From NCBI RefSeq assembly GCF_003334255.1, contig NZ_QOWU01000141.1: DNA of 2,037 bases. One strand, given 5' to 3'. This DNA is from Escherichia coli. Its GTDB lineage: Bacteria; Pseudomonadota; Gammaproteobacteria; Enterobacterales; Enterobacteriaceae. The notes below the pieces were generated by a model. The model did not search any database and was not told the DNA's origin. It saw only the letters and a program-made list of their open reading frames with translations. Every line of letters starts with the position of its first letter. The first letter of the stretch is position 1. A program made the translations under genes and the position numbers. Positions 1-2,037 of this stretch are shown one piece after another.

Positions 1-846
1 AACCAGATGGACCCGGTGTACACGCCGGCGCGAAAAATCCACCTGTACCACTGCGACCATCGCGGCCTGCCGCTGGCGCTCATCAGCACGGAAGGGGCAA
101 CAGCGTGGTGCGCAGAATATGATGAATGGGGCAACCTGCTGAATGAAGAGAACCCGCATCAGCTGCAGCAGCTTATCCGGCTGCCGGGGCAGCAGTATGA
201 TGAGGAGTCCGGCCTGTATTACAACCGCCACCGCTATTATGACCCGCTGCAGGGGCGATATATCACTCAGGATCCGATTGGACTGAAGGGGGGATGGAAC
301 CTGTATGGATATCAATTGAATCCGATATCAGACATCGACCCCCTGGGTTTATCTATGTGGGAGGATGCAAAATCGGGGGCATGTACTAATGGTCTTTGCG
401 GCACACTATCCGCTATGATAGGTCCAGATAAATTTGATTCTATAGATAGCACCGCATATGACGCCTTAAATAAAATAAATAGCCAATCTATTTGCGAAGA
501 TAAAGAGTTCGCTGGTTTAATATGTAAGGATAATAGTGGCAGATATTTCTCAACAGCACCTAACCGAGGAGAAAGAAAAGGATCATATCCATTCAATAGC
601 CCTTGCCCTAATGGTACTGAGAAAGTATCAGCTTATCATACTCATGGTGCAGATAGTCATGGAGAATATTGGGACGAAATATTTTCAGGTAAAGATGAGA
701 AAATAGTTAAAAGTAAAGATAACAATATCAAGTCATTTTATTTAGGTACGCCCAGTGGTAATTTTAAAGCAATAGATAACCACGGGAAGGAAATAACAAA
801 CAGAAAAGGATTACCTAATGTCTGCAGAGTTCATGGTAATATGTAA
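1..846 (+). CDS. rhsA: Rhs-family polymorphic toxin, C-terminal portion (5' end lies upstream of the window): end of conserved core plus variable C-terminal toxin tip
   Basis: The frame is open from base 1 (aac cag atg...), so the M at 7 is internal. The translation ...[35 protein letters not shown]...DIDPLGL is the hallmark end of the E. coli Rhs core. GC is about 58% in bases 1-60 and about 32% in bases 421-480, the typical core/tip contrast. Stop TAA at 844-846. The rhsA symbol is inferred only from the yibA-like gene downstream; the core is nearly identical among rhs paralogues, so it could be another rhs copy. Confidence 0.9.
352..846 (+). other. Variable Rhs C-terminal toxin domain (Rhs-CT), about 165 aa, function unknown
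   Basis: Everything after DPLGL (codons at 337-351) is AT-rich and not recognisably core. It contains 7 cysteines ([37 protein letters not shown]) and a His-rich patch, [16 protein letters not shown] cannot assign a toxin family from sequence alone. Confidence 0.75.
806..810 (+). promoter_or_regulatory. Shine-Dalgarno-like AAGGA for the immunity ORF, located inside the toxin coding sequence
   Basis: AAGGA with a 7-nt spacer to ATG 818. Confidence 0.5.
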
Positions 847-1201
847 AAAAATATTGTTTAGGAACTGTGTCATTGTATCTTTGTTTGTTTTTACATACAA
901 CACATGGGCGCAGTGTAATAATAATATTAAAATAATGCGCAAGTATGAAAGTGAAGGTAAATATACCGTTAGAAATTTGGTTAAAAATAAAGCTATAGCA
1001 TTGGAATTAGCTGAGATATATGTTAAGAATCGTTATGGACAGGATGCCGCAGAAGAAGAAAAACCATACGAAATCACTGAGTTAACAACAAGTTGGGTTG
1101 TTGAAGGTACCATTCACTCAGACCAAATTGCTGGTGGGGTTTTTATTATAGAAATAGGCAAAAATGATGGGAGAATTCTGAATTTTGGCCACGGAAAATA
1201 A
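818..1201 (+). CDS. Putative cognate Rhs immunity protein (RhsI), possibly NTF2-fold-like, with a possible N-terminal signal peptide
   Basis: 127-codon ORF in AT-rich DNA, where chance ORFs are short. AAGGA at 806-810 sits 7 nt before ATG 818. It overlaps the toxin stop by 29 nt, the usual toxin-immunity arrangement. The N-terminus [23 protein letters not shown] is hydrophobic. The C-terminal part ([17 protein letters not shown]...PYEI...SWVVEGT...[22 protein letters not shown]) resembles the motif pattern I recall for NTF2-fold immunity proteins. Alternative starts are ATG 833 and ATG 935. Confidence 0.7.
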
Positions 1202-1292
1202 GTATGTAAGGATAATCAAACATCGTGTGCGCTGATGGCAGAGTAGGTGGAGGACTCCAGACAGTCAAACGATAGAAAAAGATAGCCTTTAT

Positions 1293-1305: not shown

Positions 1306-1689
1306 ATGTCAAATACATACCAGAAAAGAAAGGCAAGTAAAGAGTATGGTTTATATAATAAATGTAAGAAACTAAATGATGATGAATTATTTCGCTTACT
1401 TGATGATCGCAATTCCTTGAAAAGGATTTCATCTGCCAGAGTATTACAGTTAAGAGGGGGGCAAGACGCTGTTAGATTGGCAATTGAATTCTGCACTGAC
1501 AAAAATTATATCCGTAGAGATATCGGAGCATTTATACTCGGGCAAATATAAATTTGCAAAAAATGCGAAGATAATGTTTTTAATATTTTTAACAATATGG
1601 CATTGAATGATAAGAGTGCTTGCGTTCGAGCTACGGCAATCGAGTCAACGGCCAGGGAAAGATCATCAAAAGTTCACTTTTTGCACTAA
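1306..1689 (+). pseudogene. yibA: yibA-like HEAT-repeat protein (putative Rhs-associated immunity or lethality-reduction protein), disrupted by an in-frame stop and a 3' truncation
   Basis: Translation from ATG 1306 (MSNTYQKRKASKEYGLYNKCKKLNDDELFRLLDDRNSLKRISSARVLQLRGGQDAVRLAIEFCTDKNYIRRDIGAFILGQI) matches my recollection of the E. coli YibA N-terminus. TAA at 1549-1551 interrupts the frame. The same frame then continues as ICKKCEDNVFNIFNNMALNDKSACVRATAIESTA, still YibA-like, before changing to RERSSKVHFLH and stopping at 1687-1689. Full-length YibA is about 280 aa as I recall; only about 128 codons are present. Confidence 0.75.
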
Positions 1690-1796: not shown

Positions 1797-2037
1797 ATGG
1801 AACTTAAAAAATTGATGGAACATATTTCTATTATCCCCGATTACAGACAAACCTGGAAAGTGGAACATAAATTATCGGATATTCTACTGTTGACTATTTG
1901 TGCCGTTATTTCTGGTGCAGAAGGTTGGGAAGATATAGAGGATTTTGGGGAAACACATCTCGATTTTTTGAAGCAATATGGTGATTTTGAAAATGGTATT
2001 CCTGTTCACGATACCATTGCCAGAGTTGTATCCTGTA
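1797..2037 (+). CDS. ISAs1-family transposase (H-repeat-associated protein), N-terminal 80 codons, 3' end beyond the window
   Basis: Translation [80 protein letters not shown] closely matches the N-terminus of E. coli H-rpt proteins (YhhI/YdcC/YbfD family) as I recall them. No stop occurs before the window ends. Confidence 0.9.

Follow-up and report, generated by a model that had tools for sequence, protein, structure and literature searches.

Comparison supports a Sec signal peptide on YhhH, which is paired as immunity protein with the C-terminal toxin of RhsB, and makes an envelope target for that toxin likely

The window analysed here, a 2,037-nt stretch of Escherichia coli DNA from contig NZ_QOWU01000141.1, carries the 3' end of rhsB and, overlapping it, an open reading frame (ORF) at 818-1201 that had been described from the sequence alone as an immunity-gene candidate with a secretion-signal-like N-terminus. 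We find that this ORF is yhhH and consider it likely that yhhH encodes an exported immunity protein and that the RhsB tip is an envelope-acting, JAMM-type hydrolase. Databases already list yhhH, the family to which it belongs and its pairing with a toxin, and the ORF itself is no discovery. What we add is family-wide evidence for export, modest in kind, which argues against the RNase label that has been copied between descriptions of DUF4329 Rhs effectors. The features on which the argument turns are the following.

1-351, plus strand: end of the conserved GC-rich RhsB core (NCBIfam RHS_core and Rhs_assc_core, Pfam RHS; RefSeq rhsB).
352-846, plus strand: RhsB C-terminal toxin tip, with the DUF4329/Tox-JAB-2 domain at nt 448-804.
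505-507 (E51), 637-645 (H95-T96-H97), 685-687 (S111) and 694-696 (D114), plus strand: JAMM-type residues of the tip, from an alignment of homologues.
806-810, plus strand: AAGGA Shine-Dalgarno (SD) sequence of yhhH within the rhsB coding sequence, read from the sequence, 7 nt before ATG 818.
818-1201, plus strand: yhhH coding sequence, 127 codons plus stop, overlapping rhsB by 29 nt (818-846); from the ORF list and, with the same coordinates, RefSeq WP_001271686.1.
818-910, plus strand: predicted Sec (signal peptidase I) signal peptide, residues 1-31, from hydropathy, the -3/-1 rule, the invariance of W30-A31 and family-wide N-terminal signals.
911-1198, plus strand: predicted mature periplasmic YhhH, 96 aa, with the Imm-NTF2-2 domain at residues 60-127 (nt 995-1198).

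By sequence, yhhH (127 aa from its ATG) is the immunity gene cognate to the toxin at the C-terminus of RhsB, and its product presumably neutralises that toxin by direct binding. The Pfam model Imm-NTF2-2 (PF15631) aligns in full (positions 1-68 of 68; E=3.4e-26, score 91.6) with residues 60-127, which bears out a family assignment first made from the motifs WVVEGT (93-98), GG (106-107), DGRIL (117-121) and HGK (125-127), all of them present. No NCBIfam or PADLOC family model matched YhhH. The tip encoded by the upstream ORF (7-846, the 3' end of rhsB) matches DUF4329 (PF14220; E=2e-39), a domain that Zhang, de Souza, Anantharaman, Iyer & Aravind (2012, PMC3482391) renamed Tox-JAB-2 and for which they listed "Imm-NTF2 family 2" as the immunity partner. 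The immunity-gene reading of the original prediction thus holds, an Imm-NTF2-2 member overlapping a DUF4329/Tox-JAB-2 Rhs tip being a pairing that was already published, with the E. coli proteins as its founding members. The order of a DUF4329 toxin gene followed by a PF15631 gene recurs in a Salmonella locus (L003), a YbbC-like locus (L016), an orphan module (L006) and a metagenomic locus (L013). In E. coli, 2617 complete records carry yhhH at an identity of 99% or more, the segment that holds it (window 700-1250) is present in more than 3100 of 5426 complete genomes, and RefSeq names the gene through a BlastRule. In the literature searched, yhhH turned up in screen hit lists only.

Pieces of the same pair were also seen in other arrangements. 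Two E. coli proteins of 323-324 aa (P0333 and P0334) carry DUF4329 and Imm-NTF2-2 in one chain and are probably toxin-immunity fusions that arose by a frameshift in the 29-nt overlap. In L005 and L006 (3400-8222), an orphan fragment of DUF4329 lies, together with a 73-aa Imm-NTF2-2 gene whose N-terminus is degraded, beside type VI secretion system (T6SS) genes, namely tssF and tssG in both loci and an ImpA_N-domain (tssA-like) gene in L005. The orphan pieces in L005 come after a full Rhs gene with a different tip, and the two loci look like an orphan-module array. At L009:3309-5630, a signal-less Imm-NTF2-2 member sits amid small ORFs beside an ADP-ribosylglycohydrolase gene, an arrangement that looks like a poly-immunity locus.

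Whether YhhH has an N-terminal signal at all depends on where its translation starts. As originally noted, the ORF begins 29 nt inside the toxin gene and has a ribosome-binding site of its own, the AAGGA at 806-810, and RefSeq likewise annotates the start at ATG 818. If the true product were instead a cytoplasmic 88-aa immunity protein started at ATG 935 (M40), the 5' extension would be untranslated or an accidental frame in AT-rich DNA. The Pfam domain needs only residues 60-127, gene callers give many 88-aa versions, and a few relatives, such as P0174, are truly signal-less, all of which would suit the shorter product. Conservation speaks for the longer one. M1 is nearly invariant among YhhH homologues at 65-90% identity, whereas M6 is replaced by I and M40 by L in the homologue P0072. 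The block AAAAGGATTACCTAATG, which comprises the SD and the start codon, is identical in a 70%-identical Salmonella homologue while the flanking codons have diverged; the 29-nt overlap is also kept in the Salmonella homologue L003, and the sole indel 5' of M40 relative to the Salmonella copy is 3 nt long, leaving the frame open. An SD was looked for in the sequence before ATG 935 and none was found, the preceding letters being aataatattaaaata. With M1 and the SD conserved, replacements at M6 and M40 in some homologues and an in-frame indel, ATG 818 is the best-supported start. Translation from ATG 935 is disfavoured by this comparison, and we regard it as very improbable.

Read from ATG 818, residues 1-31 are supported by comparison as a Sec signal peptide. 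The n-region carries K10, K11 and R15 (net charge +2), the h-region runs from C17 to Y27 (11 residues, with best Kyte-Doolittle means of 3.13 in a 9-residue and 2.75 in a 10-residue window), and the c-region N-T-W-A places T at -3 and A at -1, with cleavage predicted between A31 and Q32, just ahead of C33. By this hydropathy heuristic YhhH shows the features of a Sec/signal peptidase I substrate, i.e. a charged n-region, an h-region of 7-15 residues and small residues at -3 and -1. The N-terminus had been described as a positively charged KK, a hydrophobic stretch of about 16 residues and then TWAQ-C. The KK, a hydrophobic core and the T-W-A-Q-C sequence are indeed there, but the run of 16 uninterrupted residues is not, since R15 and N16 split the stretch and leave an h-region of about 11 residues in K-12. 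In the Salmonella homologue the h-region has about 15 residues, and the N-terminus as a whole (MFAESMAICKK-IFVCGLIIISLLFIT-HNGWA, followed by DSSN) is a cleaner signal than that of K-12. W30-A31 is invariant among homologues at 65-72% identity while the rest of the N-terminal segment diverges with its hydrophobicity kept; in Salmonella P0069 (70% identical overall), this segment is less conserved than the mature part. A lipobox of the form [LVI][ASTVI][GAS]C was not found at the end of the h-region of K-12 YhhH, where the only nearby cysteine is C33 in W-A-Q-C, and C33 is not conserved, homologues having NGN or DSS.

The same segment could in principle act as an uncleaved type II signal anchor, holding YhhH in the inner membrane with its domain in the periplasm. 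Positive charges ahead of a hydrophobic stretch would give the required N-in, C-out orientation, the AlphaFold 2 (AF2) model draws residues 3-45 as a single continuous helix, and the partner of at least one DUF4329 toxin (L014, below) has a long segment resembling a transmembrane (TM) helix. However, a membrane span would be expected to be longer than a hydrophobic core of 11 residues, or 15 in Salmonella; a small residue is invariant at -1, which together with T or G at -3 points to selection for a signal-peptidase site; and most relatives have classic cleavable or lipobox signals. We therefore consider an anchor rather unlikely and keep the cleavable signal peptide as the preferred reading of this segment.

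One further candidate line of evidence was rejected. The hydrophobic N-terminus of P0055 appeared to be an independent instance of a signal, but DNA alignment identified its gene as a recombination chimera in which the first ~30 codons of a ybfB-like membrane immunity gene, together with the rhsC-type tip that it belongs to, have been joined to yhhH at W30-A31. The chimera lies at the rhsB locus of E. coli GCA_045584835.1 (L004:5480-6190) and is joined in frame at the TGG-GCG codons; its tip is Cys-rich and no longer DUF4329. The hybrid immunity gene is probably mismatched to its toxin.

Beyond the close homologues, export is supported as a family trait of YhhH relatives. An exhaustive HMMER search of 1.84 billion representatives returned 510 relatives at E<=0.001, and among the top 150, which we examined, 122 have at least 20 residues ahead of the Imm-NTF2-2 domain. 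A signal-type N-terminus occurs in 101 of these 122 (83%), compared with 11% of shuffled versions, by a conservative and crude heuristic that scores OmpA and PhoA as positive and LacZ and TrxA as negative but fails to recognise MalE; 70 are of the signal-peptidase type, 27 have a lipobox and 4 are hydrophobic only. Several of the heuristic's negatives are visibly truncated lipoproteins or mis-called starts. For example, P0156 (L007) is seemingly signal-less, yet an upstream in-frame Met gives it a textbook signal (MEHWIINRKPLIQILFLSLFLTMPLVSRA, followed by AS), and the signal-less member of L006 is a degraded orphan. YbbC, the K-12 paralogue that RefSeq places with YhhH in one "YbbC/YhhH family", has the same domain and a similar size, and a YbbC-like copy stands right after the DUF4329 gene in L016. 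Its N-terminus (MKYSSIFSMLSFFILFAC, followed by NETAVYG) is unrelated in sequence to that of YhhH but is again signal- or lipobox-like; with its lipobox-like L-F-A-C, YbbC may be a lipoprotein and not, like the predicted YhhH, soluble in the periplasm. The W30-A31 invariance, the N-terminus of YbbC and the 101 relatives thus lend comparative support to the signal peptide that had been predicted, and signals in distant relatives and in YbbC speak further against a start at ATG 935. The founding description of the family (PMC3482391) differs in that it gives Imm-NTF2-2 as "E. coli only", leaves a signal peptide unmentioned and favours a nuclease, whereas most of the 122 relatives with a sufficient N-terminal extension have a signal peptide or lipobox.

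Signals or anchors also recur on the partners of more distant toxins. We looked up five divergent DUF4329 toxins, 30-37% identical to the RhsB C-terminal toxin (RhsB-CT), and the ORF after each of the five starts with a signal or anchor, four passing the heuristic and one being borderline.

L011 (Salmonella), 678-980: ORF downstream of a DUF4329 toxin; begins MKFLIFIFMVCTVCNAFG.
L012 (E. coli): ORF downstream of a DUF4329 toxin; begins MKAIQCCYFLALVSSHLMAG, borderline by the heuristic.
L013: ORF downstream of a DUF4329 toxin; begins MKFLIKVIVIIFCIGNLGFAK, with a weak Imm-NTF2-2 match.
L014: ORF downstream of a DUF4329 toxin; TM-like segment of ~20 residues.
L015: ORF downstream of a DUF4329 toxin; begins MKAILQSPIGRLMAVTICLTAGSAQRADA.

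A profile comparison of the L011 downstream protein with the Imm-NTF2-2 alignment gave no homology, the signal peptides alone being aligned. Since this partner is not detectably homologous to YhhH, exported partners seem to have arisen more than once. The original prediction had reasoned that an exported immunity protein would imply a toxin acting in the periplasm or envelope, and the signal or anchor on all five divergent partners favours such a site of action.

The toxin itself is well conserved at the positions that matter for a JAMM enzyme. Among 65 non-redundant homologues, E51 and H95-T96-H97 occur in every one, S111 and D114 in 64. The model of the tip has the JAMM/MPN fold, and its best structural matches are JAMM peptidases. 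From model and alignment together, the RhsB tip looks like an active JAMM/MPN metalloprotease with a complete E/HxH/S/D zinc site. A search of solved structures by sequence gave none for YhhH and, for the toxin, only chance matches to internalin. Two cysteines, Cys57 (523-525) and Cys84 (604-606), occur together in 15 of the 65 homologues, are both absent from 49 and occur singly in 1, in a count that ignores kinship; their covariation probably reflects a clade-specific disulfide, which would fit an oxidising compartment.

It is also conceivable that YhhH is exported while the final target of the toxin is cytoplasmic nucleic acid, in which case YhhH would catch the toxin while still in the periplasm, ahead of its passage through the inner membrane. 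This is where the published opinion lies: Zhang et al. 2012 (PMC3482391) saw a likeness between toxin JAB domains and RadC and argued that these domains may be nucleases, which would imply a cytoplasmic target. Surveys of enterohaemorrhagic E. coli, Shiga toxin-producing E. coli and Salmonella repeat "RNase" for DUF4329 Rhs effectors without experiments, and one of them calls activity and substrate unknown; the label given to E. coli and Salmonella DUF4329 effectors in several such surveys rests on the 2012 conjecture. No experiment in the literature that we found backs a nuclease activity, and it is JAMM peptidases that share the complete zinc site and give the best structural matches. In addition, a producer of such a nuclease would be without cytoplasmic protection, and the covarying Cys pair suggests a disulfide suited to an oxidising compartment. 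To our knowledge, the known nuclease toxins of the Rhs, contact-dependent inhibition and colicin systems have cytoplasmic immunity proteins, which also counts against a nucleic-acid target. Ma et al. 2017 is reportedly the source cited for the RNase label. Taken together, we find a nucleic-acid target unlikely and an envelope target for the RhsB tip the better reading of an exported YhhH.

The predicted structure of YhhH was compared with known folds as well. The AF2 model, built on a 97-sequence alignment, has a predicted local distance difference test score (pLDDT) of 88.9; the long N-terminal helix includes the signal peptide and is followed by a flexible link to a core of two helices (58-73 and 75-80) and four strands. 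At ~70 residues, this core is smaller than a full NTF2 cone, and in the model the "NTF2 fold" of YhhH would hold only in a broad cystatin/NTF2-like sense. Foldseek of the model against the PDB returned nothing below E=0.2. The structural neighbours include the PepSY domains of FoxB (7.3), YpeB (7.1) and YpmB (6.1), propeptides of M36/M4 metalloproteases (6.2 and 6.0) and cystatins. The resemblance to the PepSY/FTP propeptides of M4/M36 metalloproteases and to cystatins is at the level of the fold, with identities of 12-21% and no Pfam PepSY match. Several of the nearest neighbours are extracytoplasmic protease-inhibitor modules, which would be consistent with inhibition of a metalloprotease-fold toxin and is to be taken as a lead, not proof.

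Taken as a mechanism, these observations suggest the following course. Translation of yhhH would start at ATG 818 from an SD inside the last rhsB codons, and because of that position rhsB and yhhH would be translationally linked. Residues 1-31 would serve as a Sec signal peptide and be cut by signal peptidase I after T-W-A, releasing a 96-residue YhhH into the periplasm, where its small alpha+beta domain of the cystatin/PepSY/NTF2-like kind would bind and block RhsB tips arriving from sibling cells. The tip would be a JAMM/MPN-fold zinc hydrolase, most plausibly a peptidase or isopeptidase acting on an amide bond of the envelope. Because the immunity protein appears to be exported, the most likely site of action of the toxin, once delivered by the type VI route, is the target cell's periplasm or envelope. 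The producer would need no cytoplasmic antidote, since the Rhs shell encloses the tip and the target would be extracytoplasmic.

Small inhibitors of this type are familiar from other effectors. The Tai, Tsi1, Tsi3, Tgi and Tli proteins, immunity partners of envelope-targeting T6SS effectors, are small Sec-exported or lipoprotein inhibitors encoded beside the effector gene, and they neutralise in the periplasm with no cytoplasmic antidote. Their effectors are amidases, glycosidases and lipases that usually travel as cargo, unlike the JAMM-fold domain that ends the Rhs protein here, and YhhH has no sequence relationship to these immunity proteins. Within the JAB toxins, Imm65, the partner of Tox-JAB-1 on Rhs proteins, has been described with a signal peptide and lipobox; it is found in Bacteroidetes only and belongs to a different fold and family (PMC3482391). 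Given that description of Imm65, the immunity partners of both JAB clades appear to be exported.

Exported partners (the YhhH family and at least one non-homologous partner) and an intact JAMM peptidase site both point to an envelope target. More tentatively, and with somewhat less than even confidence, we propose that DUF4329/Tox-JAB-2 tips in general are periplasmic JAMM-type metallo(iso)peptidases rather than RNases or nucleases, that they may cut an envelope amide bond such as a cross-link within peptidoglycan or the bond between Lpp and peptidoglycan, and that YhhH-type proteins form a large family, overlooked for the most part, of exported inhibitors of these enzymes that are PepSY/cystatin-like. 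If true, a widespread effector class would have to be re-annotated and a new enzymatic mode of cell-envelope attack added; among JAMM enzymes, this would also be the first class to serve as a weapon between bacteria against an extracytoplasmic substrate that is not ubiquitin-like. PAAR-RhsA-DUF4329 occurs in more than 150 serotypes according to a 2023 Salmonella survey.

Several points weigh against an exported YhhH and an envelope-acting tip, beside the RadC argument, the disregard of kinship in the cysteine count and the crudeness of the signal heuristic given above. The n-region in K-12 is long (15 residues, including E4) and its h-region is short. A minority of the family is genuinely signal-less, among them P0174 (L009), which has a stop codon just upstream. 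Table 2 of PMC10469887 gives "No" under TM/signal peptide for the immunity partners of DUF4329 Rhs effectors in Salmonella; unlike that listing, the L011 partner clearly starts with a signal, and it may be another gene than the paper's. The searchable literature yielded no functional work on YhhH, on YbbC or on a DUF4329 toxin. As far as we know, there is no type VI system in K-12, where the pair may therefore be idle.

This last point opens a further alternative, in which the K-12 pair would be an idle relic, silenced, undeliverable and under no current selection, and the signal-like N-terminus would have no present function there. The paralogous ybbC region is bound by H-NS and StpA, a pseudogene and an insertion sequence (IS) element lie at the yhhH locus, and other strains have IS1 insertions and chimeras, all of which would suit a relic. 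On the other hand, the ORF is intact and nearly identical in the 2617 complete genomes, and all catalytic residues of the toxin are intact. Idleness in K-12 is on balance doubtful, if well worth keeping in mind; moreover, it concerns activity in one strain and would leave unchanged what yhhH encodes, which we continue to read as an exported immunity protein.

The rest of the window gives the setting of the pair. By megablast, all 2037 nt are 100% identical over the full length to E. coli K-12 MG1655 and to many other strains, and the K-12 RefSeq record gives four features for the same stretch, namely the last 846 nt of rhsB, yhhH, a "lyase" pseudogene and the start of yhhI. The RhsB core closes with the DPLGL motif at nt 337-351, and GC content falls from 0.60 in the core to ~0.30-0.40 past nt 350, a classic Rhs core/tip boundary. 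Rfam, promoter and terminator scans of the window gave nothing over background. Two neighbours lie downstream of the pair.

1306-1656, plus strand: yibA-like HEAT-repeat "lyase" pseudogene, outside the pair (NCBIfam PRK09687, positions 1-81 of 285; internal stop according to RefSeq).
1797-2037, plus strand: 5' part of yhhI, an ISEc1/ISAs1-family (H-repeat) transposase (NCBIfam transpos_ISAs1; RefSeq).

The pseudogene, which directly follows yhhH, is likely a remnant of a displaced Imm-HEAT-type immunity cassette, and the start of the yhhI transposase gene flanks the region of Rhs tip and immunity gene. In several strains, IS1A has inserted in or beside yhhH and the rhsB tip (H1-H3, H16; P0301, P0304), including gene calls that join IS1 transposase fragments to DUF4329.

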